Under the pieces are notes generated by a model. That model ran no database searches. It saw only the letters and a list, made by a program, of their open reading frames with translations, and was not told where the DNA came from. Positions 2,437-22,160 of a stretch of DNA of 32,000 nt are shown here, piece after piece. The stretch's first letter is position 1. Every line of letters begins with the position of its first letter. The DNA comes from Haloferax volcanii DS2 (lineage in GTDB: Archaea > Halobacteriota > Halobacteria > Halobacteriales > Haloferacaceae). A program made the translations under genes and the position numbers. The stretch covers positions 1,890,001-1,922,000 of the forward strand of contig NC_013967.1 of NCBI RefSeq assembly GCF_000025685.1, given 5' to 3'.

Positions 2437-3654
2437 TCACACGTAACCTAAGGCTTCTAGGTGCTCTGTCTGTTCCTCAGAAAGTTCGACAGAGTCCTCA
2501 CTCCGGACGAGTTCATCGCTTAATTCTTTTTGAGCTTCTTGAAGCGAGATTGTCGTATTCCCAAATTTCTCCCAATCTCTTCCCCAGAATTTAAGCCCAG
2601 AAACCAGCTCACTAATTCCAGTTGTGCTCCGAGCGGGTGGTGCGTAGTCGCCGAGGAATACGTCATAACCGTAGTATGCCATCCTAAGTAACTTAGATCG
2701 TCGATGCTTCACCCAGCCCCCATCATTATCCCATAAACCGGAAGCAACGTAGACGGGAAGTTCTCTACCGAATGCATTGTACCGCTGCCAAACATCACTC
2801 CTAACACGTCGATCTTCATCCGGCGTCTCTGCCCAGAGGTCAATGCCATCTACGTGGCCAATCTCTCGTCCAACCGCTGAAAGACAAGTCGGTGCTAAAT
2901 CAACTCCTGATGCGACCCCGCTAAGTGTCTCTCCCTTTGGGATTCCTTTGCCAATGAAGGTCATTGGGACTTCGAGTAGTTCAGGGCAAAGAGGCGTTGA
3001 GTGGCCCCACTTTCCTCCCAATCGACCACCTTCACCTAACAACTCCCCATGATCCGACGTGAATACACAGAGTGTATCTTCACGAAGTCCCAGATTTTCT
3101 AACTTGTCTAATATCTCTAAGAAATAATTTGCTGACTTTTCAGCATCGTTTTGGTACTTCTGCTGTAGATCTTTTGGATCGTTGTAATCCCTAAAATAGG
3201 GGCCAGTTTCGTATTCGTCGTTTTCGAAGCCGTAGGGTGCGTGGGGACCGAGATCATGGACAACATGAACAAATGGCGGTTCAATATCAGCGAGCTTCTG
3301 TTCCCCATCTAGTCGAAGCATTTTGACCGGGGGCTTCTCACTTGATTCAAATTTCAACCAGTGTTTCTCAGAGTCAAACCCAGCATCCCAGTCTTCCTGT
3401 TCAGATAATAGGGGTGGACGTTGCGGAAGTCGGTCTTCGAACATCCAAACATTGTGACTTGATGGATACTTCCCGGACATCAACGATGGAATTGAAGATG
3501 CTGTCCAAGGTGCTGCAGCGATTGTTTTTATCGTTAGACCCTTTGAGCGGATTCTTTCAGGGAGTGCATCATACCTGAGTGAGTCAGAAATAAATATAAA
3601 TACATTTTCAAAACCCGATTCGCCTGACAGATTTGAAATTGGCCCCGTAATCAT
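2437..3654 (-). CDS. Alkaline-phosphatase-superfamily (sulfatase-like) protein lacking the C/S-x-P-x-R formylglycine motif
   Basis: 405 aa, AT-rich codons. N-terminal metal-site strand VFIFISDSLRYD, nucleophile region WTASSIPSLMSGKYP, then GPHAPY and TSDHGELLGEGG...WGH, typical of the sulfatase/phosphotransferase fold. Confidence 0.8.
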   Translation of the reverse strand: MITGPISNLSGESGFENVFIFISDSLRYDALPERIRSKGLTIKTIAAAPWTASSIPSLMSGKYPSSHNVWMFEDRLPQRPPLLSEQEDWDAGFDSEKHWLKFESSEKPPVKMLRLDGEQKLADIEPPFVHVVHDLGPHAPYGFENDEYETGPYFRDYNDPKDLQQKYQNDAEKSANYFLEILDKLENLGLREDTLCVFTSDHGELLGEGGRLGGKWGHSTPLCPELLEVPMTFIGKGIPKGETLSGVASGVDLAPTCLSAVGREIGHVDGIDLWAETPDEDRRVRSDVWQRYNAFGRELPVYVASGLWDNDGGWVKHRRSKLLRMAYYGYDVFLGDYAPPARSTTGISELVSGLKFWGRDWEKFGNTTISLQEAQKELSDELVRSEDSVELSEEQTEHLEALGYV

Positions 3655-3836: not shown

Positions 3837-4727
3837 ATGATTGGGATATCAAGGGAGAACGTCAGTACACTTTGGCAGCGCCCAAGACGGATAATTCCAT
3901 TCCTGATTCGGAAATATAACTACGCAACTAACGACGTCACATACAATGAAGATGGTGTCGACATATTTGAAGAAGACTGGGATAACTTGGTGATTCTTGA
4001 TGCGTGCCGGTATGACTATTTTCAGTCTGAGTCTAAGTTAAGCGGTGATACCTCTTTTCGATTCTCGAGGGGTGCTATGAGTTCGGAATTTATCACGGGT
4101 AACTTTGCGAATAAAAAGGTTCATGACACAATCTACGTCTCAGCAAATGGCTTTTACCCTACATTGAAAGATGAGATAAACACAGAAGTATACCAATATA
4201 TTGACTTACCACGGGATGCAGCAGACAATATTACTACACATCCAGAGACAGTAACTAAAGCTGCAATTGAAGCAAATGACGACAATCCAAATAAGAGGCT
4301 CATCATTCACTATCTCCAACCCCACCAACCATACATAGGTGAGTTTGGACGCTCCAAATTTGAGTTCGAGGGAAATTTGAAAGATTCAATGAGAAAAAGT
4401 CAGGTGACCAAAGAAGATGTGCGAACGGCATATACTGAGAATCTGAATATAGTTCTTGACGAAGTCGCTATATTAAACGAATCCCTTGATGGGAAAACAG
4501 TTGTAACTGCGGATCATGGCGAAATGTTAGGTGAAAAAATCGGGCCATTTGAGCTATATGGTCATTTCCAGGGAGTATACCGAGACGAATTAGTTAAAGT
4601 TCCATGGCATGTGTTAGAATATGACTCCAGAAGAGATATCATCGCTGAGGAGCCAGTTTCGGATATGGTGGATTTAGATGACAAAGAACTCAATCAACGC
4701 TTGAAAGACTTAGGATACAAAGTATAG
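3837..4727 (+). CDS. Alkaline-phosphatase-superfamily (sulfatase-like) protein, shorter paralog
   Basis: 296 aa with [34 protein letters not shown] and [11 protein letters not shown]...YGH. The C-terminal tail [11 protein letters not shown] parallels EHLEALGYV of the 2437..3654 protein. Confidence 0.75.
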
Positions 4728-4728: not shown

Positions 4729-5808
4729 ATGTCTAGTGACTACTCGAACATCTCTGAACTCATAGAGGAGGAGTACAATAATAGCAAAAGTGTTGGAATC
4801 TTTGTATCAAGATTTGACAAATCTGAAGGGGTGGGAACAGTAGTGAATCGACATATTAGTGAGTTGAATGATGCAGGGATTGATGTTACTCTCTTTGCGT
4901 ATGAACAGGTGGACGAGATTGCTGAAAAGAAGGTTGTTAATGTGAGTTCTAGTCTAACCGGCAATAATACACTAAATAAACTCATATCTTCGATGAATCC
5001 GCTAAAGTGGTTGAGTTTATCTAGCGAATTGAAGAAACTAGATTTGTTGATCGTACACCAACCAATTCTTTGTTCAATAGCTTATTACGCACAAAAAATC
5101 CATGACATAGACACCATCTATTACAATCATGAAGTAACCCGTCCCGAAGATAAAGTTGGGACTATTCAAAGAATATATGGATACACATTGTTTCAAATCT
5201 ATCTTCACATTAGTTCAAGACTCGATCAAATTGTTTCAGTTAGTAAATACAGTCAACAGGAATACTCCCGGAGGTTTGACCGTCAAGGAATGGTTATTCA
5301 TAATTCGATAGACCATGAGATGTATAACCAATCCGTAGACGGCTCTAGAATTCGTGAGAAATATGATCTTGAAGATGACCCATTGGTGTTATTTGTTGGT
5401 CGGATCGCAAAGTCAAAAGGAATCCATAGATTAATTTCTGTGTTCGAGGACGTTTCAAAGACAATTCCCGATGCTACCTTAGTCATTGTTGGACGCCCAG
5501 ATAATCAGGGATATTATCAACGTGTCAAAGTCCTAAGCAAAAGCGTCGATCAACAAATAATTTTTGCGGGAATTGTTCCAGAAGAAGATCTACCTGCTTA
5601 CTATTCCGCTGCTGACTTGTACGCGACATGTTCAATCAAAGAAGGATACAACCTCACAATCGCGGAAGCTGAGGCATGTGGAACACCGACAATCGCATTC
5701 GATATCGGTGCTCACTCCGAAGTCATGAATGATGGCGTTTTAGTTCCAAAGGACAACACTAGCTTATTTAAAGAGGAGATGGTTAGCCAACTCACTAAAC
5801 AAAGGTAG
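4729..5808 (+). CDS. Glycosyltransferase family 4
   Basis: 359 aa with [12 protein letters not shown], a VIVGRPD block and the E-x7-E motif [17 protein letters not shown]. The ATG lies 1 nt after the upstream stop (TAG at 4725-4727), suggesting an operon. Confidence 0.85.
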
Positions 5809-5896
5809 TGGTTCTGCTCACGTTGCTATATTTTAAATATCCCAGATCTTGATGCCCTATTGTTTATATGATAACACCTGTAAGGTGCAACAGACA

Positions 5897-6775
5897 ATGC
5901 TGGATGACCTATCAATTATAATTGTTAATTACAAGTCCGAGGAAGATATCAAAAATTTATACTCAAGAATTTCAGGTGTGGCTGAATTTGTAGTTGTTGA
6001 TAATAGTTCGTCTAGTGAATTGAGGCAGTGGTGTAGTCACGACGACATACATTATATTGATTCAGGAGGAAATCATGGATATTCTGGTGGGAATAATATG
6101 GGGATTAGATATTCACTTGATGAACTCAATCGTGAATCAGTCTTGGTCCTAAACCCTGATCTTGAGATTAATAAAGAAGATATTCGGGAACTATACACCA
6201 TACATCAAAGTACAAACTATTCAATCATCTCACCAAGAATTCTAAATCGAGAGGGCATACCAGTCAATGAGTCTCCAACTCCAGAGGGAACTCTCTTCCG
6301 CTCTATTGGTCTTCTTCCAGCTTTACCGGGAAAGGAACACAACCTCAAACCAGTTGATCACGCACATGGTTCCTGTATGATGATAAGCGAATCAGTTTTC
6401 GAACAGATTGGATATCTGAATGAGTCATTTTTTATGTACTATGAAGAAATTGAGTTTTGTTACAGAGCTCGGCGAGAGAATATCAACATAGGACAGTGCC
6501 AAGTGGTAGATGCAATCCACAATCAACCAGTAGACCAAACGAGGTTTGAATCATCTTACCAAGTCTACCTTGACTTCAGAAATCGATTCTTGGCTTCAAA
6601 TTCTATATTTTCAAAAAGCATTGACCGCATTCAATACACTACTCTTTCAATACTAATCTCAGGTTGGATGGTCGTAAGAATGCTATTTGAAAAGAAGATC
6701 GAATACATAGCTCCTGCAATATTCGGAGCCCTGCACGGTATCCAAAACAGAACAGGGAAACCAGAACGGATGTGA
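5897..6775 (+). CDS. Glycosyltransferase family 2 (rhamnosyltransferase-like)
   Basis: The ORF track starts at TTG 5849. The ATG at 5897 gives MLDDLSIIIVNYKS, followed by VVVDNSS, LVLNPD and GSCMMISESVFEQIGYLNESFFMYYEEIEFCYRA, typical GT2 (WbbL-like) blocks. Confidence 0.85.
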   Translation: MLDDLSIIIVNYKSEEDIKNLYSRISGVAEFVVVDNSSSSELRQWCSHDDIHYIDSGGNHGYSGGNNMGIRYSLDELNRESVLVLNPDLEINKEDIRELYTIHQSTNYSIISPRILNREGIPVNESPTPEGTLFRSIGLLPALPGKEHNLKPVDHAHGSCMMISESVFEQIGYLNESFFMYYEEIEFCYRARRENINIGQCQVVDAIHNQPVDQTRFESSYQVYLDFRNRFLASNSIFSKSIDRIQYTTLSILISGWMVVRMLFEKKIEYIAPAIFGALHGIQNRTGKPERM

Positions 6776-6790
6776 CCTTCAGACAAGTAT

Positions 6791-7792
6791 CAGTACCTCA
6801 CAAAGCATCCTCGGCTAGCTGTTTCTGAAGCCTGAGTTCTGTGTCGGAGCGGTTGCATTGACGGTCTCGACGGGAGAATCATGGACGAATCGGTGGAGAG
6901 CTGTCGCTGTCGGCGGCGGTCAGCCGCTGACGCGACAGCGTCGCCACTCACACCGCTGGCTAGCCCGGTCAAGAGTTACCGGCTAAACCGGTCGTCTGGT
7001 GGCCGGTTCGCGGGGACGGCCCGACGCACCGCGAGGGCCGTCCACGCTGCCCGTCGAATCATGTTGGTGAATTCCTTGTACGACCACTCCCAGAGGCGAC
7101 GCCCGCCTCGGCGGGGCGTCGCCACGTACTCCCAGTGCAGATACCGCCACACGTTCTGTAACAGCAAACTCACCACGACGTACAACAGCCGTACGACCGG
7201 ATTCTGTGTCGTAGTCGTCGCAATCGTTTGCTCGGAGAGTCGGTAGCTCGCCTCGATACCGAAGCGTTTCGCGTAGTGGTATCGAGCGTCTCGTGGTGAG
7301 TTGATGAACGGCGCGTCAGCGGCGTAGCCGTGACGCGCCACGCCATGTTCGTCGTACCGTCCGTTCTGGTAGGTACAGTCGATGTAGACGGGAAACTCGA
7401 CGGTCCAGCTGTGACCGTCGAGTTTCGCTGTCAGACTGTGCTGAATCACGCGACTCCACCCTTCTGAGAGTTCTCGCTTGATCGTTCGTCCCCAGCGGAC
7501 GATCGGCATGACGTACGCGTGGTTGTGCGCCTGAAGCAGCGTCAAACACTTGCTGTCGTAGAATTCGCGGTCAAGATAGACGGCCTTGACACCGAGGTCA
7601 AGGCCGTCGAGAATACCGAGGAACTCTGCGAGGACACTGCTGGCGGTGTCGCCGTCTTCGAGACGGCGCACCGCCAGCGTGTAGCGTTTGTTCTTCACGC
7701 GTGCGTACAGTGTCGCGTACGCGTGGAACGCGGTGGTTCCACGCTTTGCTTGGGAGTGATAGAGACCGTCCGTGTCGTCTTCGTCACCATAG
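6791..7792 (-). mobile_element. Truncated ISH3/ISH51-like insertion sequence (left IR plus transposase 3' two-thirds)
   Basis: Starts with the terminal repeat CAGTACCTCACAAAGC also found at both ends of the full copy at 12354..13776. It is colinear and near-identical to 12377..13378 and ends abruptly at the left IR of the IS4-like element. Confidence 0.85.
6976..7791 (-). pseudogene. DDE transposase, N-terminally truncated (ISH3/ISH51-like)
   Basis: The 240-aa ORF-track product differs at 9 positions from residues 149-388 of the 12561..13727 transposase. The frame stays open up to base 7791 (YGDEDDTDGLYHSQAKRG...), but the first ~120 codons and the start are missing. Confidence 0.8.
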
Positions 7793-9234
7793 CATGCGTT
7801 CTAGTTTAGCAGAGAATGCGGTCGCTGTTTGTTGATTAGATATCGTCGCAACTACCCGGTTGAAGAACCCGGTGGATGATGTGTACTCACCACCGGACTC
7901 GGTAGTTGTTGACCGGATTCAAAGAGCGTTTCCCTCTGATGAGTTGCGCGAGCGCGCTCGCGCAACGAATCTCGTCCAACGAGAGCGGAAATTCGACATC
8001 GTTGCGCTGTTCTACACACTCTCGTTTGGCTTCGCTGCTGGCTCAGACCGCTCTCTCCAAGCATTTCTCGAACGCTACGTCGAGATGGCTGACTGTGACG
8101 AACTCTCCTACGCATCGTTCCACGACTGGTTCGAACCAGGATTCGTTGCACTCCTTCGAGAGATTCTCGATGACGCAATCGAGAATCTCGATACCGGACG
8201 AGAAGATTTGAACGGCCGTCTCGAACGCTTTCGAGACGTCCTCATTGCTGACGCAACCATCGTTTCGCTGTACCAGGACGCCGCTGATATCTACACAGCA
8301 ACCGGCGACCATCAAGCCGAACTGAAACTTCACCTCACCGAATCTCTCTCGACTGGGCTCCCGACACGATTCCGGACAACCGATGGGACGACTCATGAAC
8401 GGAGTCAGCTACCCACCGGTGAGTGGGTAGCTGACGCCCTCATCTTGCTCGATTTAGGCTTCTACGACTTCTGGTTGTTCGACCGAATCGACCAGAACGG
8501 CGGGTGGTTCGTCTCCCGGGTGAAGGACAACGCGAACTTCGAGATCGTCGAAGAACTGCGAACGTGGCGAGGCAACAGCATTCCGCTGGAAGGAGAGTCA
8601 CTGCAGGCCGTCCTTGAGGACCTGCAGCGACAGGAAATCGACGTACGCATCACGCTTTCATTCGAGCGCAAACGAGGGTCGGGCGCCAGCGCGACCCGGT
8701 CGTTCCGATTGGTCGGCCTGCGTAACAAGGAGAGCGAAGAGTACCATCTGTATCTGACGAATCTGGCGAGAGAAAGCTACAGCGCGCCCGATATCGCGCA
8801 GCTCTATCGGGCGCGCTGGGAGGTCGAACTGCTGTTCAAGGAGTTGAAGTCGCGGTTCGGCTTGGACGAGATCAAGACGACCGACGGCTACATCATCGAG
8901 GCGCTGATCATCATGGCCGCAATTTCGTTGATGATGAGTCGTGTAATCGTGGATGAGTTACGGTCGCTCGAGGCAAGACAGCGAGAGGGCGAAGCCGCCG
9001 CAGACGCCGACTCGTCGGCGTCGCGGCTCCCTCGGCGTCGCTGTTCGCTCGCCGTGGAACGCCACGGTCATCTGATCCAGTTGTATCTCATGATCGAGTT
9101 GGGCTACGAACTGCCGGATTTGGACGAGCTGTTGCTGTGGGCGTCACGAAATCCAAATCCACACAGAGATCGGTTACGTGAGCAGGTTGAACGAGGTGAG
9201 TTCGGCTTTGATCGCTACTAAACTAGAACGCATG
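7793..9234 (+). mobile_element. IS4-superfamily insertion sequence with 17-bp perfect terminal inverted repeats
   Basis: CATGCGTTCTAGTTTAG at 7793-7809 is the exact reverse complement of 9218-9234. The 1442-bp element carries one transposase ORF. No flanking direct repeat is visible. Confidence 0.85.
7860..9221 (+). CDS. IS4-family DDE transposase
   Basis: 453 aa with the C-terminal Y-x2-R-x3-E-x6-K signature in LYRARWEVELLFKELKS, plus LLDLGFYDF and VSRVKDNANFEI blocks. The start is ambiguous (TTG 7860, GTG 7872 or 7881). Confidence 0.85.
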   Translation: MKNPVDDVYSPPDSVVVDRIQRAFPSDELRERARATNLVQRERKFDIVALFYTLSFGFAAGSDRSLQAFLERYVEMADCDELSYASFHDWFEPGFVALLREILDDAIENLDTGREDLNGRLERFRDVLIADATIVSLYQDAADIYTATGDHQAELKLHLTESLSTGLPTRFRTTDGTTHERSQLPTGEWVADALILLDLGFYDFWLFDRIDQNGGWFVSRVKDNANFEIVEELRTWRGNSIPLEGESLQAVLEDLQRQEIDVRITLSFERKRGSGASATRSFRLVGLRNKESEEYHLYLTNLARESYSAPDIAQLYRARWEVELLFKELKSRFGLDEIKTTDGYIIEALIIMAAISLMMSRVIVDELRSLEARQREGEAAADADSSASRLPRRRCSLAVERHGHLIQLYLMIELGYELPDLDELLLWASRNPNPHRDRLREQVERGEFGFDRY

Positions 9235-9298: not shown

Positions 9299-11059
9299 AT
9301 GAATCTCACTAACGGCTCCACTCACACCCGTTTGATAAAATCGGTTGACCCTCGACTTCGTCTCTCAATCTCGTTTCTACTATTCTTCTCTCTGGTAGTG
9401 TATTTTCGGTATTTTCCAACAATCATTTCCGACATCGTTTCTGATTCTATTGTACTCTTTTCATTACTCTGTCTGTTTGTAATGATAATTGTTGGCTCAG
9501 TCCTTGATCAGGGGGTTTTCAGATATTTATCCATACTCTTAGCGGTATTACTGGTATTCTTCGCGCGATCAATCCGATACATTCGAACGCCTTTCCCAAT
9601 GCTGTGGGATCCATATACACATATGGCCGCTGCAACCAATATTCTACGTACAAATCAAATTCTCCCGGCAACTCCTGAGTGGACTACTGTCTTGTACAAG
9701 ACATCTTTTTGGCCGATGCTGTACACACTAAGTGCCGAGATAACCCGAATCACCAGTATAGACACACAGATCGTGCATAACTACCTCCTCCCGTTTACGG
9801 GAGTTGTGTTTTTCTTAGTTATTTATATTTTTTCCAGACGGATTGCTGGATTGGGATATTACTCACTTGTTGGTGCACTTGTTTCGTCGTTTGCGTCTAA
9901 CGTCATCTTCTACCAATCAGAATTTCATCCGCAGGGATTTTCATTGTTATTCCTGGCAATGTTCTTATACTTTTACTCACTTAACTCAGATCAGCCGCAG
10001 CCCAGATTAAAACTTCTAGAAGCAGTCACATTAGTTGGGTTTCTGTTCTCCCACTATTTTTCGCCTTTATTTTTGTCAATGGTGGGTGCCGGTGCAGTTT
10101 GTTTGCTGATTCTACGAACCTCTCTCGGTCAATACTTTGGTATGCGCTCAATTAACTCATCAAATTTAGTCCGGTATGAACCACTACTACTACTTGGAGT
10201 GGTAATACTATTCTATCACCTTTGGTCCCCTGCACCTCATTTGGAGTATTACCTGCAGTTAGCACTAACTGCATCGCCGGATAGTACCAGTCTCACGACT
10301 ACGGACAAGTTATTCATTTCAGACATGGTACGGAGAGTTAAGTGGGTCATCTTAGCGATCTCCTTGCCAGGGCTGGCTTATTCAATTTGGAAAGGTGAAA
10401 AGAGCCAGCTAATCGTAGCCGCATTCATCTTCTCTTTACTTGGAATCGGTGTGCTAGGCAGATTTGGTATCTTCTTAGAAGTTGGCAGGACTGTCACATT
10501 TTATTCATCTATTGTGGGAGTGATGTGTGCTCTCAGTCTCAAATACATTCACACGCTTGAAATTGATATTAATCTTCCAGTCTCACTATCGGCCCTGATC
10601 TCTCTTGGTATTTCAATTCTTCTTGTCATCTCCTTTATTGGTGGACACTTTGTTCCGGCATATTACTTCCATTCCGTAGATGAGCATGAAGGATATTACA
10701 ATAACAACCAAGTTGCATCAATGGAACAATACCAACCTGCAGGTTACTGGTTTAAAGAATATTCAACCTCCGAATATCAAGCGATTTCAGATACTAGGAG
10801 CTTTACTGGTACTATTCCATTTTATTGGGGTGAGACACCAGTAAGACCTGGGATCTTCCCATGGTACGATGGTGAACCATCTCGCCAAGTAACTCGGTGG
10901 GGTGGAATAAATTATCATATCGATAGAAGTAGCGCTGAGAATCGCTATTTCTTTGTGAATGTGAACGATCAGACGACAGTCTCAAAGGCGGATCGGAAAA
11001 ATGGGATCTATGCAAATGGGGAAATATCAATTTATTTTGATTTCCCCCGATCTGAGTAA
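9299..11059 (+). CDS. Polytopic (~13-14 TM) membrane protein with ~125-aa C-terminal soluble domain; GT-C/Wzy/ligase-like candidate of unknown function
   Basis: The ORF track starts at TTG 9290; the first ATG is at 9299. Many hydrophobic spans (LSISFLLFFSLVVYF ... VSLSALISLGISILLVISFIGG) are followed by an aromatic-rich tail (YYFHSVDEHEGYY...FPWYDGEPS...). AT-rich codon usage matches the neighbouring GT genes. Confidence 0.75.
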   Translation: MNLTNGSTHTRLIKSVDPRLRLSISFLLFFSLVVYFRYFPTIISDIVSDSIVLFSLLCLFVMIIVGSVLDQGVFRYLSILLAVLLVFFARSIRYIRTPFPMLWDPYTHMAAATNILRTNQILPATPEWTTVLYKTSFWPMLYTLSAEITRITSIDTQIVHNYLLPFTGVVFFLVIYIFSRRIAGLGYYSLVGALVSSFASNVIFYQSEFHPQGFSLLFLAMFLYFYSLNSDQPQPRLKLLEAVTLVGFLFSHYFSPLFLSMVGAGAVCLLILRTSLGQYFGMRSINSSNLVRYEPLLLLGVVILFYHLWSPAPHLEYYLQLALTASPDSTSLTTTDKLFISDMVRRVKWVILAISLPGLAYSIWKGEKSQLIVAAFIFSLLGIGVLGRFGIFLEVGRTVTFYSSIVGVMCALSLKYIHTLEIDINLPVSLSALISLGISILLVISFIGGHFVPAYYFHSVDEHEGYYNNNQVASMEQYQPAGYWFKEYSTSEYQAISDTRSFTGTIPFYWGETPVRPGIFPWYDGEPSRQVTRWGGINYHIDRSSAENRYFFVNVNDQTTVSKADRKNGIYANGEISIYFDFPRSE

Positions 11060-11183: not shown

Positions 11184-12320
11184 ATGCACGTATTGTATAT
11201 CATGGGTCAAGATAGTGGTGGATTACCACACTATACCGCAGAACTTGCGAATTCTATGTCAGAATATGCAAGGGTTACAGTTCTAAAGCCTAATGAGACT
11301 TCTGCTGATGAGGTGCTACGAGACGAAATCACGGTGATAAATGCGTTTAAGCCAACGGACATCTCAATGCAGAATCTCTTCGATTTAAAACTAGATGTAC
11401 TAGATAGTATTCGTGGATTATTTTCTTTTTGGAATATCAAACTGATAAATCAGATTGACCCAGATATAGTTCATGATCCAACCGATGAATTCCCCCAAGT
11501 GAATCTATTTTCATGGGTTCACTCTGTTTATGAGGACCGGCCATACGTCGTTACATCCCATGAAACGAAACATGGTGGCGCAGGTGGGGTCCTGAGAGTC
11601 GTTAACCCACTATTGTCGCTCGTTCCTGACTTTGAGAAATCTGCAGCAATTGTACACTCTGCTGACCAACGGGAATTATTACTCAATAACCACAAAGCTG
11701 TTGACGAAGTTCATGTAATTCCACATGGGGTATATTCATTTTTCAGGGAGCTTGACTATGACGAGCAAAAAGAAGAAGATAAACACGCATTATTTTTTGG
11801 TAGTCTCATCCCCCCCAAAGGCATAGAATATCTAATCGATGCAGTCCCTAAAGTGTCTGAAGAAGTTCCGGGGTTCTCACTCACAATTGCTGGAAGTGGA
11901 TCTATACCAGACGAGTGTGCTGACGTGGTCGAACAATATTCTGATGTAATCAACATCAGAAATGAGTTTATACCGAATGAGGAGGTTGGGACATTATTTT
12001 CTCGAGCACAGGTGGTGGTCCTTCCCTACCGACGTGGTTGGCAGACAGGCCATAGTGGTACTCTCTCAATTGCCTTTGCTTTTGGAAAACCAATTATCAC
12101 CTCAGAGGTCGGTGATTTCCCTGAACTTGTTGGTGAGTCAGGAGCAGGAATCGTAGTAGAGCCTGAATCCCCCGAGGCTATTGCTGACGGACTAATTGAG
12201 GTGTTTTCATCAGATTCTGCTTTAGATCAGATGTCGAACGCGAGTTCAAGGGTGGCAGATCGATTATCTTGGGAGAAAATCGCGGAACAGCATTTCGAAG
12301 TATATCAAAATTTATTATAA
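11184..12320 (+). CDS. Glycosyltransferase family 4
   Basis: 378 aa. N-terminus [18 protein letters not shown] is typical of a GT4 N-domain; the C-domain has [22 protein letters not shown] and [17 protein letters not shown]. Confidence 0.85.
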
Positions 12321-12353
12321 CCCATAAGTGGGATTGGACCATCTAGAGATAGG

Positions 12354-12395
12354 CTCAGTACCTCACAAAGCATCCTCAGTACCTCACAAAGCATC
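12354..12395. repeat. Perfect 21-bp tandem duplication of the IS terminus (2 copies)
   Basis: CTCAGTACCTCACAAAGCATC occurs at 12354-12374 and again at 12375-12395. The truncated copy at 6791 has this end only once. Confidence 0.9.
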
Positions 12396-12560
12396 CTCGC
12401 CTAGCTGTCTCTGAAGCCTGAGTTCTGTGGCGGAGCGGTTGGACTGGCGGTTTCGACGAGAGAATCATGGACGGATCGGCGGAGAGCCGTCGCTGTCGGC
12501 GGCGGCTGCCGCCGACGCGACAGCGTCGCCACTCCCACCGTTGGCTAGCCCGGACGGGAG

Positions 12561-13727
12561 TTACCGGTGGAACCGGTCGTCCGGTGGCCGGTTCGCGGGG
12601 ACGGCCCGACGCGTCGCGAGGGCCGTCCACGCTGCCCGTCGGATCATGTTGATGAACTCCTTGAATGGCCACTGCCAGAGGCGACGCCCGCCTCGGCGGG
12701 GCGTCGCCACGTACTCCCAGTGCAGATACCGCCACACGTTCTGTAACAGCAAGCTCACCACGACGTACAGCAGCCGTACAACCGGATTTTGTGTCGAGGT
12801 CGTCGCAATCGTTTGCTCGGAGAGTCGGTAGCTCGCCTCGATACCGAAGCGTTTCGCGTAGTGGTATCGAGCGTCTCGTGGTGAGTCGATGAAGGGCGCG
12901 TCAGCGGCGTAGCCGTGACGCGCCACGCCATGTTCGTCGTACCGTCCGTTCTGGTAGGTACAGTCGATGTAGACGGGAAACTCGACGGTCCAGCTGTGAC
13001 CGTCGAGTTTCGCTGTCAGACTGTGCTGAATCACGCGACTCCACCCTTCCGAGAGTTCTCGCTTGATCGCCCGTCCCCAGCGGACGATCGGCATGACGTA
13101 GGCGTGGTTGTGCGCCTGAAGCAGCGTCAAACACTTGCTGTCGTAGAATTCGCGGTCAAGATAGACGGCCTTGACACCGAGGTCAAGGCCGTCGAGAATA
13201 CCGAGGAACTCTGCGAGGACACTGCTGGCGGTGTCGCCGTCTTCGAGACGGCGCACCGCCAGCGTGTAGCGTTTGTTCTTCACGCGTGCGTACAGTGTCG
13301 CGTACGCGTGAAACGCGGTGGTTCCACGCTTCGCTTGTGAGTGATACAGGCCGTCTGTATCGTCTTCGTCGCCGTAGTAGGGCCGCAGGTGGAGGTCTGC
13401 GCAGACCTCCACCTGCTGGGGAAGGACGTCGAGAACGTCTTTCTGGAGGAGCGTGTTCCCGATTTGTTCGAGCGTCTCGAGGTCGAACTTGGTGCGGAGA
13501 TGGTAGAGAACCGAGTTTTCGTGAGGTGCATCTTCGCTTCTCTTGCAGAGTGTAGAGACCGAGGTCCCGTCGGCGCAGGCGCCGACGAGGACCTCGTAGA
13601 TGTCTTCAGCATCGAGTTCAGCGTTTTCAGCGAGTGAGAGAGCAACTTCCTCGTCAAGAGAGTTGACGAGGAAGTTAAGGAGCTGGTCCTCGTGGATTTC
13701 ATCGTCTGTTTGCTGGTTGTTGGACAC
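12561..13727 (-). CDS. DDE transposase (ISH3/ISH51-like)
   Basis: 388 aa with a GTG start. Candidate catalytic blocks are VCADLHLRPYYGD, AVYLDREFYD and the Y-x2-R-x3-E motif in HYAKRFGIEASYRL. It has a paralog at 6976..7791. Confidence 0.85.
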   Translation of the reverse strand: MSNNQQTDDEIHEDQLLNFLVNSLDEEVALSLAENAELDAEDIYEVLVGACADGTSVSTLCKRSEDAPHENSVLYHLRTKFDLETLEQIGNTLLQKDVLDVLPQQVEVCADLHLRPYYGDEDDTDGLYHSQAKRGTTAFHAYATLYARVKNKRYTLAVRRLEDGDTASSVLAEFLGILDGLDLGVKAVYLDREFYDSKCLTLLQAHNHAYVMPIVRWGRAIKRELSEGWSRVIQHSLTAKLDGHSWTVEFPVYIDCTYQNGRYDEHGVARHGYAADAPFIDSPRDARYHYAKRFGIEASYRLSEQTIATTSTQNPVVRLLYVVVSLLLQNVWRYLHWEYVATPRRGGRRLWQWPFKEFINMIRRAAWTALATRRAVPANRPPDDRFHR

Positions 13728-13777
13728 ATCTTCAGCAAGCAGACCTTCTAACTAAACGGCTTTGTGAGGTACTGAGA

Positions 13778-15196
13778 CTAAATTGGTACCAAGCGAATGA
13801 GATTTTTGAATGCTGTCTCGCGGATTGGTTGATACAATAGTGTGATTGTGGTATATACTAGCATGCCAAAGAATATTCCAATAAATAATTGAATTAATGA
13901 ATTTACACCAACTAGTGTTTTAAATCCGAATAATACGCCTGCCATGATTAGTGAAGAGACTGTACACCAGCCGATTTGAGAGTATTGGAATTTAATAGAT
14001 ACAAATGATGACAAATAATGTGCATGGAGTACTGTGTTTACTGCAAATGAAAGGGCAGTAGCAACAGCTGCTCCAACAATACCGAATGATAGAATTAGAA
14101 TTACATTTAGAATCAGGTTTAGAACCACAGAGATTACCGTTGCCCTTGCAGCTAATCCAGGTTGGTTAAGTGCTTGAAGTGATCGACCAATAATAACATG
14201 GACCGATTGAAGTATCTTTTCGCCTGCAAGTATAATCAACACATATGAAGCAATAGTGAACTCCGAACCAAATACGATCCCCATAATTTCGTCTGAGAAA
14301 ACTAAAATCCCGAAGAAGGCAGGTATGACAAGAAGCATGGACGGAGTGATTGAGTTGCTAATTACTGACTCAATCTGTTGCTGTTCATTCTTTGAACTCC
14401 ATTGGCTTACCTGTGGGAATATCGTTGATGCAACTGCTTGACTGAATAGCATCGTGATCGCGGTAACCCGCCAGGCAGTCTCATACGCACCAACATGTGA
14501 TTGAGTTAGAAATATCCCAATAATCGCAACATCCATCCAACTATAAAAGTAGCCACCAATTGACGAGACTACGCTATATTTACTGTAGTTGAATAATGAT
14601 CGTGCGTTTTTGAATGATGGTTTCTTCAAAGAGGTTGATATTTTTGATAAGCCCCAAGCTAGAGTCACCACCATGCCTGCTAACAGACTGTAGATTAATG
14701 CTTCAGCATCAAGTCCAGAACTTACTAGCAGGAAGCCACCACCCACCCAAGTAATTCGTCGGATAATATTCAACTCGGCTGTTTCACCTACGCGAAGTTC
14801 CCCTTTCAATACAGAGACAGCTAACTGGGCAGTTTCTTGTAAGATAATTGCAAGGGCCAGATAAACAGCAAAATCACCGCCAAGATAACCATTAATTCGC
14901 TGTTCAAAAACAACAATCGACAATATGATTAAAGAGATTGGAATGAGTTTGAGGATGATTGCACTCGATAAGTACTCACCGGGCTGAATTCCTTCACTAA
15001 TTCGTTTTTCAACAGCACCACGTAATCCGAAATCAGCCGGTATAGCAACTATACCGAGTAAAGCTTGGAACAAAAAGAACACACCCATCTGTGATGCGCC
15101 CAATTCTCGGGCAAAAAAAGTGATTCCCAAGAATTGGAGACCTGCTCCGAAAATATTGGCTATGAATAATTTGATACTTGAACGAGCAAGATCCAT
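13778..15196 (-). CDS. Wzx/RfbX-type MOP-family oligosaccharide flippase
   Basis: 472 aa and ~12-14 TM. The N-terminus MDLARSSIKLFIANIFGAGLQFLGITFFARELG is typical of the polysaccharide biosynthesis protein family. Low GC. The stop codon lies 2 nt from the IS right end. It may correspond to Agl15 of the Hfx. volcanii low-salt pathway (from memory). Confidence 0.85.
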   Translation of the reverse strand: MDLARSSIKLFIANIFGAGLQFLGITFFARELGASQMGVFFLFQALLGIVAIPADFGLRGAVEKRISEGIQPGEYLSSAIILKLIPISLIILSIVVFEQRINGYLGGDFAVYLALAIILQETAQLAVSVLKGELRVGETAELNIIRRITWVGGGFLLVSSGLDAEALIYSLLAGMVVTLAWGLSKISTSLKKPSFKNARSLFNYSKYSVVSSIGGYFYSWMDVAIIGIFLTQSHVGAYETAWRVTAITMLFSQAVASTIFPQVSQWSSKNEQQQIESVISNSITPSMLLVIPAFFGILVFSDEIMGIVFGSEFTIASYVLIILAGEKILQSVHVIIGRSLQALNQPGLAARATVISVVLNLILNVILILSFGIVGAAVATALSFAVNTVLHAHYLSSFVSIKFQYSQIGWCTVSSLIMAGVLFGFKTLVGVNSLIQLFIGIFFGMLVYTTITLLYQPIRETAFKNLIRLVPI

Positions 15197-15449
15197 CGGT
15201 TAGCCTCCATTAGTAATCTTACTGGATTCATGTGGATAAAAATGCATTGGAGATTGACTTTATTATTAATAATTGAATTTATTATTCGTTACAATCCTTA
15301 GGTGCTCCGTGTGATAGTGAACTGGCTCTTGTCTAAGTCTAGTAGCTCTTGACTGACCCCACAACCAAGTCGTTACTCAACCTGATAATGATTAGATAGT
15401 TAACGTTAACCACTACATCTATCACGTGCGAATTGTATCCCTAGGAAAG

Positions 15450-15920
15450 ATGCCAAACATCCACGATGTCGAAGTCCGTGACCTCCAAGTCAACGCCGAC
15501 CAGCGAGGCCACTTGGTCGAAGTGTTCCGTAGCGACTGGGACGAATACGAAATTGACCCGGAGATGTCCTACTACTCGATGACGTATCCCGGAGTCGTGC
15601 GGGCCTGGCATCGCCATCTCGAAGGCCAGATCGACCACTTCGTCTGCCCGAAGGGTCGTATCACGGTGGGCATCTACGACGACCGCGAAGACTCGCCCAC
15701 GCAAGGAGAACTCGACACGTTCGTCATCGGCGAGCACAACCAACAAGTCATCCGCATCCCAGGTGACTGCTGGCACGGATTCAAGGCTATCGGCGACGAG
15801 CCGTCGCTGCTCATCAACTACCCGACGAACCTCTACGACTACGAAGATCCCGACGAAGAGCGCATTCCGTACGATGACGACCGGATTCCGTACGACTGGA
15901 ACGCGGAAATCCACGGCTAA
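15450..15920 (+). CDS. rmlC: dTDP-4-dehydrorhamnose 3,5-epimerase (cupin, RmlC-like)
   Basis: The ORF track starts at GTG 15426; ATG 15450 gives MPNIHDVEVRDLQVNADQRGHLVEVF. Cupin His residues appear in WHRHLEGQIDHF and CWHGF. Adjacent to rmlA/D/B. Possibly Agl13 (from memory). Confidence 0.85.
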   Translation: MPNIHDVEVRDLQVNADQRGHLVEVFRSDWDEYEIDPEMSYYSMTYPGVVRAWHRHLEGQIDHFVCPKGRITVGIYDDREDSPTQGELDTFVIGEHNQQVIRIPGDCWHGFKAIGDEPSLLINYPTNLYDYEDPDEERIPYDDDRIPYDWNAEIHG

Positions 15921-15982: not shown

Positions 15983-17056
15983 ATGAAAGGCGTACTTCTC
16001 TCAGGAGGCACGGGCTCCCGTCTCCGACCCATTACCCACACCGGGCCGAAGCAACTCGTTCCGGTCGCGAATAAACCCGTCCTCGAATACGCGGTCGAGG
16101 ACCTCAAAGAAGCGGGAATCACCGAAATCGGCGTCATTCTCGGCCACAAGGGCCGCGAGGAGATTCAGAACCTCCTCGGCGATGGTTCGGACTACGGCGT
16201 CGAGATTACCTACATCGTCCAAGGGAACCCCCTCGGCCTCGCCCACGCGGCGGGCTGTGCGAAGGACTTCGTCGGCGACGACGACTTCGTGATGTACCTC
16301 GGCGACAACATCCTCAAAGAGGGCGTCGTCGACCTCGTCGAAAGCTTCGAGTCGGGCGACTTCGGTGCGGGCATCGCCCTACAGGAAGTCGAGAACCCAC
16401 AGCAGTTCGGGATTGCGGACGTCGACGACCAGGGTAACGTCACCCAACTCATCGAGAAGCCGGACGAGCCGCCGACGAATCTCGCACTCATCGGGATGTA
16501 CGTCTTCTCGCCCGCGGTCTTCGACGCCATCGAGCAACTCGAACCCTCGTGGCGCGGCGAACTCGAAATCACGGACGCGATTCAGTCACTCCTCGAAGAC
16601 GGCTACGCCATCGACTCGCACGTCGTCGAAGGCTGGTGGAAAGACACCGGCAAGCCCGAAGACATCCTCGAGGCGAACCAACTCGTCCTCGAAGACAAGT
16701 CGCTCAAAAAGCGGGGCACCGTCAGCGACGATGCGACCGTCGATGGACGTATCGAACTCGCGGAGTCAGCGACCATCGAAGACGGCGCAGTCGTCCGTGG
16801 CCCGGTCTCTATCGCGGATGGCGCGGTCATCAAATCGGGCACCTACGTCGGCCCGTACACGTCTGTCGGTCCGAACTCGACACTCGAAGGCGTCCACATC
16901 GAGAACTCGGTCGTCATCGGTGAGTCGAGCATCAACACCTCCGGCCGCATCGTTGACAGCCTCCTCGGGAAGGGCGCGAACATCGGCAGTGCGGACGACT
17001 TCCTCCCGGAGGGTCGTCGCCTCGTCGTTGGCGAGAACTCCCAACTGAAACTCTAA
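15983..17056 (+). CDS. rmlA: Glucose-1-phosphate thymidylyltransferase (long archaeal form with C-terminal left-handed beta-helix)
   Basis: The N-terminus MKGVLLSGGTGSRLRPITHTGPKQLVPVANKPVL carries the sugar nucleotidyltransferase signature. C-terminal hexapeptide-like repeats (IEDGAVVRGPVSIADGAVIKSGTYVG). Possibly Agl11 (from memory). Confidence 0.9.
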   Translation: MKGVLLSGGTGSRLRPITHTGPKQLVPVANKPVLEYAVEDLKEAGITEIGVILGHKGREEIQNLLGDGSDYGVEITYIVQGNPLGLAHAAGCAKDFVGDDDFVMYLGDNILKEGVVDLVESFESGDFGAGIALQEVENPQQFGIADVDDQGNVTQLIEKPDEPPTNLALIGMYVFSPAVFDAIEQLEPSWRGELEITDAIQSLLEDGYAIDSHVVEGWWKDTGKPEDILEANQLVLEDKSLKKRGTVSDDATVDGRIELAESATIEDGAVVRGPVSIADGAVIKSGTYVGPYTSVGPNSTLEGVHIENSVVIGESSINTSGRIVDSLLGKGANIGSADDFLPEGRRLVVGENSQLKL

Positions 17057-17058: not shown

Positions 17059-17238
17059 ATGCACATCATCACCCACGCCTGTACGCAGTGCGGAACCGTC
17101 GTCTCCGCGAACGAACTCGAATCGAACCGCGTGATGAAGTGCCCCGGACTGGGCTGTGAGAACGTCCTCCGCTTTACGGACCTCGACCAGGCCGACCAGG
17201 AGCACTTCCTCGACAACAAAGCCAGCTACGAGCTGTAA
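17059..17238 (+). CDS. 59-aa zinc-ribbon micro-protein (C-x2-C ... C-x4-C)
   Basis: My own translation: MHIITHACTQCGTVVSANELESNRVMKCPGLGCENVLRFTDLDQADQEHFLDNKASYEL. The ATG is 2 nt after the rmlA stop, the tail is acidic, and the ORF is below the 60-aa cutoff of the track. Its 3' end overlaps the rmlD 3' end by 13 nt. Confidence 0.5.
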   Translation: MHIITHACTQCGTVVSANELESNRVMKCPGLGCENVLRFTDLDQADQEHFLDNKASYEL

Positions 17239-18128
17239 TCGCTGAACGCTGCCTCAAGCGCTGCAAGGTCGTCTTCCAACGTCGGTTGGGAGCAACCGAG
17301 TTCGCCTTCTACGTTCGACACATCGAGACACGAGCGTCGCGGCCTCGCCGCCGGGCGGTCGAGGTCGGCCATGACCGACGACTCGATGAGTGTCGCATCG
17401 CCACCAATCACCTCGCAAATCTTCTCGCCGAAGTCGGAGGGCGTGACGGCCGACTGACTCGCAACATGAAACGTCCCCGACACGCCGGCATCGAGGAGTT
17501 CCAGCGTCGTCGTGGCGACGTTGCCGGCCCGACTGGGCGTCATCGTCTGGTCGGTGAACAGCGGGACCGTGTCACCGGCGGCGAGCGTCGAGGCGACCCA
17601 CTGAGGAAAGCCGACGAGGTCGCTTGTGTCACCGCGTGCACCGTAGACGAACGACAAGCGGAGAATGAGCGCATCGGGGTTCACGTCACGAACGGCGTGC
17701 TCGCCGGTGAGCTTCGAGCGGCCGTACTCCTGAATCGGTGCTGGCTCGTCACCTTCTTCGTAAAAACCGTCTGTCTCGCCGTCGAAGACGTAGTCAGTCG
17801 AGTAGTGAATGAACGGAATCTCGCGGTCGTCACACACCGCCGCGAGATCGCCTGGCGCGGTTCCGTTTACTGCAGTCGCCACCTCGGGATTTGATTCACA
17901 GCCGTCCACGTCAGTATAGGCGGCGCAGTTAATCACCAGATCAACGTCGTACTCATCAAGCAACTCTACAACCCGCTCAGTATCTGTGATATCGACTTGG
18001 TGGAGCGGACAGTCGAAGGTGGGCTCCTCGGAGTGATAGCTGCCGACAACCGCGTGACCCTGCTCGCGGAGCGTTCGGACGACGACACTCCCGAGCAAGC
18101 CGTTAGCGCCGGTGACGAATGCGTACAT
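17226..18128 (-). CDS. rmlD: dTDP-4-dehydrorhamnose reductase
   Basis: 300 aa with MYAFVTGANGLLGS (NAD(P)-binding), INCAAYTDVDGCE, STDYVFDG and YGRSKLTGE (YxxxK). Possibly Agl14 (from memory). Confidence 0.9.
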   Translation of the reverse strand: MYAFVTGANGLLGSVVVRTLREQGHAVVGSYHSEEPTFDCPLHQVDITDTERVVELLDEYDVDLVINCAAYTDVDGCESNPEVATAVNGTAPGDLAAVCDDREIPFIHYSTDYVFDGETDGFYEEGDEPAPIQEYGRSKLTGEHAVRDVNPDALILRLSFVYGARGDTSDLVGFPQWVASTLAAGDTVPLFTDQTMTPSRAGNVATTTLELLDAGVSGTFHVASQSAVTPSDFGEKICEVIGGDATLIESSVMADLDRPAARPRRSCLDVSNVEGELGCSQPTLEDDLAALEAAFSDYSS

Positions 18129-18181
18129 GTACTCGTTGTGTCGATGAAAATGTAAATATATGCTGCCTCTGTTGGTGGCAT
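18129..18181. promoter_or_regulatory. Compact divergent promoter region between rmlD and rmlB
   Basis: Only 53 bp separate the two divergent start codons. The spacer contains the AT-rich core gaaaatgtaaatatatg within otherwise GC-rich DNA, implying very short or leaderless transcripts. Confidence 0.4.
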
Positions 18182-19114: not shown

Positions 19115-19585
19115 ATGGCTGACCAGCGCAACCAGGCGGATAAGCCGACCACGAGGATTCCCGACGACGAGTGGGAAGCAATCGTCGCGAACGTTCCGCT
19201 GGTCTCCGTCGACCTCGTGATTCGCCACGAGGGCGGTGTTCTCCTCGGGTTCCGTGAGAACGAACCCGCACGCGGTGAGTGGTTCGTCCCCGGTGGGACC
19301 GTATTCAAAAACGAGACGCTGACGGATGCCCTCTACCGGGTCGCCGACGAAGAGCTAGGCGTGGACGTGACGATCGAGTCACGACTCGGTACGTTCGAAC
19401 ACTTCTACGACACGTCGGACGTAGAGGGCATCGACTCAAAGCATTATCTTGCGACCGCGTTTGAGGTGACGCTTGACGACGACAACCTCGAAATGGACAC
19501 TCAGCACAGCCAACTGAAGGTCTTCGAACCACCGTACGAAGGTCTCCACCCCTACGTCGAGCGGTATCTAGACGCGCTCGACTGA
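19115..19585 (+). CDS. Nudix hydrolase (GDP-mannose mannosyl hydrolase/NudD-like subfamily)
   Basis: Nudix box GTVFKNETLTDALYRVADEELGV, preceded by EWFVPGG. The ATG directly abuts the rmlB stop (TAGATG). Confidence 0.8.
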   Translation: MADQRNQADKPTTRIPDDEWEAIVANVPLVSVDLVIRHEGGVLLGFRENEPARGEWFVPGGTVFKNETLTDALYRVADEELGVDVTIESRLGTFEHFYDTSDVEGIDSKHYLATAFEVTLDDDNLEMDTQHSQLKVFEPPYEGLHPYVERYLDALD

Positions 19586-21816: not shown

Positions 21817-22043
21817 TGGATACTCCTGCGCCCGGACAGGGAGTGGTCGACGCGCGATGCCGACAGTCGAAGCGACGTTCCGTTCGGCGCTCGTCGACGA
21901 CGTGACCCACCTGCGGGGCTTAGATAGCCATTCGAACGGCTTGCTATTAAAAGCAGAGTGAGCAATCGTAACATAGCACGGGCGGTCTGCACCGGAGTCG
22001 TCGCGGGTCGGCCGACGCGCGCGCGGCCGCCCATCAACGTCAA

Positions 22044-22095
22044 TCGGCGGCGGTCCATCCGTTGTCGCATCGGCGGCGGTCCATCCGTTGTCGCA
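22044..22095. repeat. Perfect 26-bp tandem duplication (2 copies)
   Basis: TCGGCGGCGGTCCATCCGTTGTCGCA occurs at 22044-22069 and again at 22070-22095, about 230 bp upstream of the pilin ATG. Confidence 0.9.
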
Positions 22096-22160
22096 GTCAC
22101 CACGCACGCGACCGCATCGGCAACGAGCGAACGCTGTGTGAGGACACTTCGACGACCAAA

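Follow-up and report, generated by a model that had tools for sequence, protein, structure and literature searches.

We examined a 32,000-nucleotide stretch of the Haloferax volcanii DS2 genome (NC_013967.1, positions 1,890,001 to 1,922,000; hereafter the window) and one gene in it, HVO_2052, which lies within the agl5-agl15 'low-salt' N-glycosylation island (gene names as in PMC3892788). On its predicted structure, the product is a divergent glycosyltransferase of the GT-C(A) fold, and we are highly confident that it serves this pathway as an outward-acting GT-C enzyme that depends on a lipid-linked sugar. Its single most likely function, to which we give a probability of about 0.45, is that of the AglB-independent oligosaccharyltransferase of the Agl15-dependent pathway. 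The evidence for this assignment comes from what is known of the pathway, from the fold and the conserved residues of the protein, from a profile comparison with STT3, and from the company that the gene keeps in related clusters.

The low-salt glycan is a tetrasaccharide composed of one sulfated hexose, two further hexoses and one rhamnose that is fully built on dolichol phosphate (Dol-P), as described by Kaminski et al. 2013 (PMC3892788). According to the same study, the lipid-linked glycan persists upon loss of agl15 and Asn-498 is then found without glycan, AglB is dispensable for the low-salt glycan on Asn-498, and the H. volcanii genome yielded no other homolog of STT3. Schulze et al. 2021 (PMC8241124) reported that several sequons are served by the Agl15-dependent pathway and that it is active when salt is optimal, and stated that the low-salt transferase 'remains to be identified'; in the literature that we searched, we found no assignment later than 2021. 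An earlier reading of this DNA from its letters alone (the sequence-only reading), which had named HVO_2052 as a candidate for this step, had this literature right, both on the dispensability of AglB and on the missing transferase. The gene that it called uncharacterised had not wholly escaped notice, however: Makarova, Galperin and Koonin 2015 (PMC5898192), the one paper of the literature searched to name HVO_2052, had already flagged it as PMT/STT3-like (arCOG00563), located in the neighbourhood of the second pathway and of unknown function. Kaminski et al. place Agl5 and Agl6 together at the step of the first hexose (PMC3892788). In our reading, the four glycosyltransferase-type genes of the island match one sugar each, with Agl6 for the first hexose, Agl5 for the second, Agl9 for the third and Agl10 for the rhamnose, and HVO_2052 is the sole other polytopic protein of the island besides Agl15. 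Because the sugars can be matched to cytoplasmic glycosyltransferases, AglB is dispensable, and the transfer to asparagine is the only unassigned step outside the cell, HVO_2052 is the leading candidate for the oligosaccharyltransferase. That step belongs to the side of the membrane on which HVO_2052, the island's one unassigned protein with a glycosyltransferase fold, has its predicted active site.

In the mechanism that we propose, the tetrasaccharide would be built on Dol-P by the cytoplasmic enzymes and then flipped by Agl15. HVO_2052 would hold the Dol-P through conserved basic residues of its outer face, Asp104 of the first outer loop, aided by the E-x-H-x-Q loop, would activate the acceptor, and the whole glycan would be moved to the asparagine of N-X-S/T sites in the S-layer glycoprotein. 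We infer the donor, the acceptor and the transfer en bloc. The use of a donor linked to polyprenyl phosphate, for its part, is suggested by the fold, by the placement of R90, K348 and R397 on the outer face of the model and by a pathway that itself runs on Dol-P.

The gene is an intact open reading frame (ORF) from an ATG at 9299 to a stop at 11059, with an in-frame TTG at 9290, three codons upstream of the ATG. Its 586-residue product is 100% identical to H. volcanii DS2 ADE05119.1 (UniProt D4GU65), which UniRef names 'Glycosyltransferase RgtA/B/C/D-like domain-containing protein' and NCBI lists as hypothetical. RefSeq carries an alternative model of 478 residues that starts at Met109 (WP_236995463.1) and would remove three membrane helices together with the conserved LWD104PY loop. 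Since the alignments of homologs to HVO_2052 begin at residues 14-24, and Met109 comes only after the conserved D104, the model of 586 residues is the right one. The ORF, its neighbours and the positions of its motifs were all as the sequence-only reading had described them. The protein is found in the 'All_quantified_proteins' sheet of the proteome of Schiller et al. 2024 (PMC10869688 Supplementary Data 3), where it is annotated 'conserved hypothetical protein'; it is not listed in the text of the ArcPP and glycoproteomics supplements. With homologs down to E=7e-125 and its listing among the quantified proteins, HVO_2052 is no chance ORF. Its composition is not acidic (37 Asp and Glu against 39 Lys and Arg; 17 against 11 in the outer tail), which one would not usually expect of a haloarchaeal protein that exposes a domain, and which agrees with a recent acquisition of the low-G+C island.

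The AlphaFold2 model of HVO_2052, computed with a 61-member alignment as input, is confident (predicted local distance difference test, pLDDT, 89.4; predicted template modelling score, pTM, 0.92). Its helices give 13 membrane spans, in agreement with the 13-14 hydrophobic stretches counted from the letters, with an N-terminus on the inner side and a C-terminal domain on the outer side. Lysine and arginine clusters map to the inner loops of the model, and the conserved polar residues R90, D104, E208/H210/Q212, H252, K348 and R397 all lie on its outer face. In a Foldseek search of the PDB the 30 best matches were all GT-C(A) enzymes (probability 0.99-1.00), as was every match with a probability of at least 0.96. 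Ranks 1-12 were taken by human STT3A and STT3B, yeast Stt3 and Campylobacter lari PglB (E 5e-8 to 3e-6), followed by ArnT, AftA, DPY19, ALG12, AftD, ALG9, Emb proteins and Pmt4, and sequence identity in the structural alignments to STT3 and PglB was 11-14%. Transporters appeared only at probability ≤0.3 and TM-score ≤0.14, and no WaaL, Wzy, SEDS, RodA or FtsW chain was among the PDB matches listed. Thus the GT-C architecture suspected in the sequence-only reading is supported by a confident model and its GT-C(A) matches. The ligase or polymerase that was offered beside the oligosaccharyltransferase finds no support, with no WaaL or Wzy fold among the Foldseek matches listed, and the search for a Wzy-type, WaaL-type or transporter identity that had been named as a possible refutation returned none among the confident matches. 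The soluble tail is aromatic-rich as had been said (9.9% Tyr, 6.9% Phe and 3.1% Trp), and it is modelled as a mixed alpha/beta domain 139 residues long (448-586), not about 125.

HVO_2052 has no Pfam or NCBIfam match, and a sequence search of the PDB, with the protein as well as with the family profile, returned nothing at E≤10. The family is tiny: an exhaustive HMMER scan over 1.84 billion protein representatives brought up 89 relatives at E≤1e-3, and 36 of these were at E≤1e-30. A word-index homolog search yielded one other cluster only, and tblastn against plasmids gave no match for HVO_2052. In an alignment of 61 family members (A1), from which all conservation figures are taken, H252 and R397 are invariant, D104, P139, P165, H210, Q212, G213, P453, G482, W484 and Y571 are conserved in at least 90%, and R90, E208 and K348 in about 89%. 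The first outer loop (residues 97-155) holds D104, which is kept in 98% of the members; its motif MLWDPYTH, which the sequence-only reading had treated as a loose hint, turns out to be the hallmark of the family, and its counterpart in the STT3A alignment is the loop with the catalytic Asp. In the second outer loop, E208 is conserved in 89%, H210 in 93%, Q212 in 98% and G213 in 92%. Following transmembrane helix (TM) 13, the motifs PAY(Y/F)F, YW(Y/N)SN and G-x-W are conserved. Arg397 is proposed as a ligand of the dolichol phosphate, by analogy with the conserved Arg of PglB. The second hint taken from the letters, the string W-Y-D-G-E, did not hold. It belongs to an insertion present only in four close haloarchaeal homologs, with the variants PWIDG, PWYSG and GWYDG, and its Asp is not conserved, being replaced in the homolog P0011; we rejected it as an analogue of WWDYG.

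A closer relation to a particular branch of the GT-C(A) enzymes emerges from the comparison of profiles with hhalign, for which the human STT3A sequence was checked against 6s7o_A (essentially identical) and C. lari PglB against 3rce_A. The family profile matched human STT3A with a probability (Prob) of 76% and E 2.3e-5 over 155 columns of the catalytic N-terminal region. In this alignment, residues 76-96 of HVO_2052 fall on TM1 of STT3A, LW-D104-P-Y106 falls on EF-D49-P-Y51 of the catalytic Asp loop (EFDPYFNYR), and SEF-H210-P-Q212-G falls on GSY-D167-N-E169-G, the second metal-site motif. The Asp is thus set in a D-P-Y as in eukaryotic STT3. At the second motif, in contrast, HVO_2052 has E-x-H-x-Q where STT3 has D-x-D/E; the aligned positions H210 and Q212 are non-acidic, and the conserved E208 stands two residues earlier. 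Against C. lari PglB the probability was low (1.9%), in the same register, with H210 on D154 and Q212 on D156. Controls with E. coli ArnT, Agl15, an MMPL protein of the window, and reversed and shuffled STT3A gave 0.1-0.6%; no similarity to E. coli ArnT was found (Prob 0.3%). By these alignments, the catalytic loops of HVO_2052 are more like those of STT3 than those of ArnT. HVO_2052 also resembles STT3, AglB and PglB (GT66, PF02516) in its overall plan of 13 membrane helices with an outer C-terminal domain, in its best Foldseek matches and in its position in a pathway where the glycan is built on dolichol phosphate and then flipped. It differs from STT3 in having two extra N-terminal helices and a C-terminal domain of 139 residues that is not detectably related, and, judged by the sequence marks that define the STT3 family, it is not a member.

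The surroundings of the gene in other genomes tie it to this pathway. The closest homologs, with 37-40% identity, lie on two metagenomic contigs (L007 and L008) together with counterparts of Agl5 (60-65%), Agl7 (41-69%), HVO_2047 (51%), Agl9 (45%) and Agl15 (32-35%), and L008 additionally keeps Agl8 (57%). On L011/L012 a homolog with 39% identity stands beside two GT4 genes and a flippase, among insertion sequence (IS) elements. For a reverse test, we looked at the surroundings of Agl5 orthologs with 55-65% identity. Four of these clusters, L016 (Natronosalvus caseinilyticus, CP071596), L017, L018 and L019, contain an Agl7-like sulfatase or a second one, in most cases together with a flippase, and have no ortholog of HVO_2052; each carries instead a membrane protein of 708-726 residues of the DUF2206 family. 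On the short 8.9-kb contig L020, neither an HVO_2052-type nor a DUF2206-type gene was present. Altogether, seven of the eight Agl5-orthologous clusters carry HVO_2052, its ortholog or a homologous DUF2206 protein along with sulfatase genes and, as a rule, the flippase, the eighth being the short contig. The co-occurrence with neighbouring glycosyltransferases, which the sequence-only reading had named as a check, therefore comes out positive, in the sense that seven of the eight Agl5-type clusters keep either an HVO_2052-type gene or a DUF2206 homolog.

The DUF2206 proteins (PF09971) are, by profile comparison, homologs of the HVO_2052 family. The family profile matched a single DUF2206 protein with Prob 95.5% and a set of six with Prob 99.0% (E 2.9e-18, 451 columns), and the alignment spans the loop Asp, the YQ...Q/H loop, S-H-Y and the D-R motif (D/G-R across both groups) and extends to a C-terminal I-Y-x-N-G; Arg397 corresponds to the invariant D-R of the DUF2206 proteins. 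These shared features come with the same slot in Agl5/Agl7 clusters. In contrast, HVO_2052 is about 130 residues shorter at the N-terminus and falls below the Pfam DUF2206 model, which has no match in HVO_2052 or in any of the 61 members, and its D-P-Y takes the place of the G-x-D-I/V-Q of DUF2206 proteins. A profile search from the six DUF2206 proteins found 12 relatives, tblastn of the Natronosalvus DUF2206 protein against plasmids revealed two unannotated DUF2206 genes, and DUF2206 is not mentioned in the literature searched. We put forward, tentatively and at somewhat less than even odds, that HVO_2052 and the DUF2206 proteins of the sister clusters form a second class of N-oligosaccharyltransferases, independent of STT3/AglB/PglB and without WWDYG. 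To the same tentative degree, the members of such a class would share the GT-C(A) core and the loop-1 Asp and would place a Dol-P-linked sulfated oligosaccharide on the Asn of a sequon.

Some further observations concern the DUF2206 proteins and distant relatives. In the protein encoded at L016 17299-19449 (residues ~623-655) and in its relatives, a segment E-x-x-x-A-x-W...(Y/F)-x-G-N-x-G was aligned with REAYYWLRHN...SWWDYG of STT3A by hhalign with six DUF2206 proteins, at Prob 1.3%. The GNYGG segment of DUF2206 was considered as a counterpart of WWDYG and is taken as unsupported at this probability; its residues are not conserved in the haloarchaeal subgroup. In clusters where Agl5 is about 45% identical, genes for DUF2206, a GT2 and a MOP flippase are adjacent (Haloferax L021 1086-5914 and Haloglomus L022 17086-21179), and genes for GH16, a polysaccharide deacetylase and a FemAB-like acetyltransferase are found in these two loci as well. 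In L002 (a metagenome-assembled genome, MAG, of Methanomassiliicoccaceae) and L004 (a Clostridia MAG), the family member is followed by a protein of about 460 residues and about 8 TMs (L002 11847-13247 and L004 12542-13924), encoded on the same strand in L002 and on the opposite strand in L004. It has no Pfam match, shows an N-terminal W-(I/V)-G-K-D-(T/S)-F-Y-H after its first helix, and may be a further GT-C-like enzyme or a polymerase.

Several points weigh against HVO_2052 as an oligosaccharyltransferase. To our knowledge, all enzymes that transfer a lipid-linked oligosaccharide to Asn belong to the STT3/AglB/PglB family and read the sequon through WWDYG. HVO_2052, in contrast, lacks WWDYG, lacks the Glu of the TIXE/SVSE motif in external loop 5 (EL5) of STT3, and has no Pfam STT3 (PF02516) match at E≤0.01, nor does any of the 61 members. 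No WWDYG-like string was found in the six frames of the window, where the nearest is WYDG in HVO_2052 itself (the sequence-only reading had already noted that the window holds no STT3/AglB-like gene with this motif, and the six-frame scan bears it out). The long outer loop at residues 310-338 contains no conserved acidic residue, E317 varying between T, E and N. The Pfam matches that do occur point elsewhere, namely to PMT_2 in 5 of the 61 members, DUF6541 in 3 and PMT in one, all in distant members. With regard to structure, TM-scores are alike at about 0.5 for STT3, ArnT and AftA, so that the fold rank alone cannot separate these functions, and the placement of STT3 first in the Foldseek ranking rests on the 3Di/sequence score; Archaeoglobus fulgidus AglB is not among the 50 Foldseek matches listed. 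The C-terminal domain modelled alone reached a pLDDT of 68.5 and had no fold match with E<0.5, and its best TMq values were weak (0.43 for the periplasmic domain of ArnT and 0.32 for the soluble domain of Pyrococcus furiosus STT3, both with E>0.5). The more distant members of the family come from Methanosarcinales, Methanomassiliicoccaceae, Clostridia (Christensenellaceae among them) and Dehalococcoidia, in clusters with multiple glycosyltransferases (GT4/GT2) and Wzx, some of which hold a further polytopic protein. Given this distribution, it is unlikely that the family as a whole consists only of N-oligosaccharyltransferases. In addition, the native DNA upstream of HVO_2052 has been cut to 64 bp, with IS elements on both sides of the gene. 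Finally, Kaminski et al. claim to have deleted each sequence of the cluster and report deletions of HVO_2046-2049, 2053 and 2055-2061, yet they report nothing for HVO_2052 (PMC3892788), so that an unreported negative result is possible.

These points leave room for other explanations. HVO_2052 could be an outward-acting transferase of a single sugar, like AglS or PMT/ArnT, with the transfer to Asn being carried out by something else. Its donor would then be a Dol-P-monosaccharide, such as a Dol-P-hexose made by the AglJ-like Agl6, and its acceptor the attached glycan, a Ser/Thr of a surface protein (O-glycosylation) or a lipid. Most GT-C(A) enzymes do transfer one sugar, and ArnT, AftA, DPY19, ALG9/12 and Pmt4 are among the confident fold matches of HVO_2052, with a TM-score of 0.51 to ArnT. 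The absence of WWDYG, the weak preference of the C-terminal domain for the periplasmic domain of ArnT, which is also small and of similar size, and the occurrence of DUF2206 in a triad with a GT2 and a flippase in second-tier haloarchaeal clusters speak for the same explanation. Such triads resemble the three-component extracytoplasmic glycosylation systems. PMT_2 (PF13231; PMT is PF02366, and the enzymes fall into GT83 and GT39) matches 5 of the 61 relatives, with the best, P0080, at E 4.5e-8 and 33.9 bits against a cut-off of 26.1; distant members score on PMT_2 or PMT, one of them is named 'glycosyltransferase family 39', and arCOG00563 and the 'RgtA/B/C/D-like' name in UniRef point the same way. 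HVO_2052 itself, however, matches neither PMT_2 nor PMT in Pfam, and its family profile is similar to STT3A and finds nothing in ArnT. Its loop-1 motif is D-P-Y as in STT3, whereas that of PMT/ArnT is D-E. AglS offers a precedent within H. volcanii N-glycosylation, being by description an outward-acting polytopic transferase with a Dol-P-linked donor: it is a Dol-P-mannose mannosyltransferase that works outside the cell on the protein-bound tetrasaccharide (PMC3892788). But the single mannose added by AglS follows the action of AglB, and the low-salt glycan needs no such sugar-adding step outside the cell, because all four sugars are already in place on Dol-P and no extra sugar has been seen on the protein-bound low-salt glycan (PMC3892788, PMC8241124). 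Nor would an unrelated O-glycan target explain the tight co-conservation with Agl5, Agl7, Agl9 and Agl15. A single-sugar transferase is the main rival, and one that we regard as rather unlikely.

It is improbable, in our estimate, that HVO_2052 serves a second product of the island by passing the flipped glycan to an acceptor other than protein, be it a lipid or a growing surface polysaccharide, or by elongating such a polymer. The family and its DUF2206 relatives do reside in Wzx-containing loci with multiple glycosyltransferases that look like polysaccharide loci, including loci in bacteria for which we know of no N-glycosylation of the low-salt type; GH16, deacetylase and acetyltransferase genes accompany DUF2206 in haloarchaea, and extra polytopic proteins are found in some distant loci. 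Nevertheless, no Wzy-, WaaL- or SEDS-type structure is among the Foldseek matches listed, the literature searched describes neither a polymer nor a lipid made by the agl5-agl15 island, and the glycosyltransferases of the island are just enough for the tetrasaccharide. A Wzy-type polymerase, a WaaL-type ligase or a transporter deserves hardly any credence: a polytopic protein near a Wzx-type flippase in a glycan locus does occupy the usual place of Wzy, but all Foldseek matches of probability at least 0.96 are GT-C(A), and neither HVO_2052 nor the 61 members match Wzy_C, the O-antigen polymerase family (O-ag_pol_Wzy) or EpsG in Pfam. If HVO_2052 were a silent or decaying passenger, with no present function in H. 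volcanii, in an IS-riddled island gained by horizontal transfer, this would account for the low G+C content (42-45% against 60-66% in the flanks), the IS4-type element in the truncated ISH3 64 bp upstream, the other ISH3 downstream, the non-acidic composition and the lack of a reported deletion phenotype. This explanation is very improbable all the same, considering that the AT-rich DNA holds an uninterrupted frame of 586 codons, that every residue conserved in the family is kept in a product with a confident model, that the protein is among those quantified (PMC10869688), and that the neighbouring low-G+C agl genes are functional (PMC3892788). The assignment of HVO_2052 as the AglB-independent oligosaccharyltransferase hence remains the one that we favour.

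The features of HVO_2052 and of the island are listed in Table 1.

Table 1. Position, strand and description of HVO_2052, its parts and the surrounding genes and insertion sequences in the window
Feature	Position	Strand	Description
HVO_2052 coding sequence	9299..11059	+	586 residues, 13 TM + extracellular C-terminal domain, GT-C(A) fold (model)
Two extra N-terminal TM helices	9350..9505	+	residues 18-37 and 45-69; precede canonical GT-C TM1 (73-96)
First outer loop, MLWD104PYTH	9599..9622	+	residues 101-108; family consensus PPLxDPYxY; proposed catalytic Asp
Second outer loop, FYQSE208FH210PQ212G	9908..9937	+	between core TM3 and TM4
SH252YFS motif	10049..10063	+	short outer loop; invariant His
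Arg397	10487..10489	+	invariant; outer end of TM12
C-terminal extracellular domain	10640..11056	+	residues 448-586; conserved P453, N470, G482, W484, Y571, G574
WYDGE string	10862..10876	+	residues 522-526; low-confidence insertion, pLDDT 55-70
agl7 (HVO_2046)	2437..3654	-	sulfatase family
HVO_2047	3837..4727	+	soluble, ~300 residues; weak sub-threshold sulfatase/PglZ/EptA-like matches (alkaline-phosphatase superfamily)
agl9 (HVO_2048)	4729..5808	+	GT4
agl10 (HVO_2049)	5849..6775	+	GT2, rhamnosyltransferase-like profile
Truncated ISH3 copy	6786..7792	-	92% identical to complete copy 12350-13780; terminal ~400 bp missing
IS4-type element	7793..9234	+	DDE_Tnp_1 transposase 7860-9221; 23-nt terminal inverted repeats
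agl5 (HVO_2053)	11184..12320	+	GT4, directly downstream of HVO_2052
Complete ISH3	12350..13780	-	22-nt inverted repeats; between agl5 and agl15
agl15 (HVO_2055)	13778..15196	-	MOP/Wzx-type flippase
agl13	15426..15920	+	dTDP-rhamnose gene
agl11	15983..17056	+	dTDP-rhamnose gene
agl14	17226..18128	-	dTDP-rhamnose gene
agl12	18119..19114	+	dTDP-rhamnose gene
agl8	19115..19585	+	NUDIX
agl6 (HVO_2061)	19651..20892	-	AglJ-like GT2, Dol-P-hexose-synthase type
Pilin gene	21379..22221	-	type IV pilin

The island has a G+C content of 38-45%, compared with 60-66% in its flanks, and is interrupted by three insertion sequences. The IS4-type element is nested in the truncated ISH3 and is the one that ends 64 bp before the start codon of HVO_2052, and a 23-nt string, TCAGTACCTCACAAAGCATCCTC, is present three times at ISH3 ends. 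The sister clusters contain a second sulfatase and a pyruvyl transferase, both of which H. volcanii lacks and possibly lost during the IS events. Agl7 is required for the sulfation of Dol-P-hexose, and deletion of HVO_2047 left the glycan without visible change (PMC3892788). Homologs of HVO_2047 are kept in nearly every sister cluster (L007 8173-9060, L008 8719-9528, L016 15389-16279, L017 19688-20608 and L020 2522-3448), and on L007 the gene runs across the stop codon of its neighbour, the HVO_2052 homolog; a functional link between HVO_2047 and the GT-C protein HVO_2052 is possible. Just outside the island, a free-standing ORF on the minus strand (935-1897) encodes an N-terminal helix-turn-helix and a LAGLIDADG_2 endonuclease domain, a gene that was earlier recorded in alternative glycosylation clusters of Haloferax (Shalev et al. 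2018). Another ORF on the minus strand (204-875, 223 residues) comprises the C-terminal GT4 (Glycos_transf_1) half only. It is a gene fragment, or else its start is wrongly placed, and the HVO_2043-like glycosyltransferase mentioned by Shalev et al. 2018 may be this gene.

HVO_2052 does not represent a new kind of system, since the GT-C fold class is well established and the PMT/STT3-like nature of the protein had been flagged in 2015 (PMC5898192). What is new is a case for its catalytic core at the level of residues, the finding of a DUF2206 homolog in the same slot of sister clusters, and a testable assignment for a step that had awaited its enzyme since 2013. The question is thereby narrowed to one gene with the residues D104, E208/H210, H252 and R397, and a refutation would shift the search for the transferase outside the island. 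As an N-oligosaccharyltransferase that lacks WWDYG and does not belong to the STT3 family, HVO_2052 would, if the assignment is true, be the first of its kind, and would show how N-X-S/T can be recognised by a GT-C enzyme in the absence of that motif. It would also provide the first functional lead for DUF2206, as well as a second, orthogonal glycan-attachment enzyme for archaeal glycoengineering.

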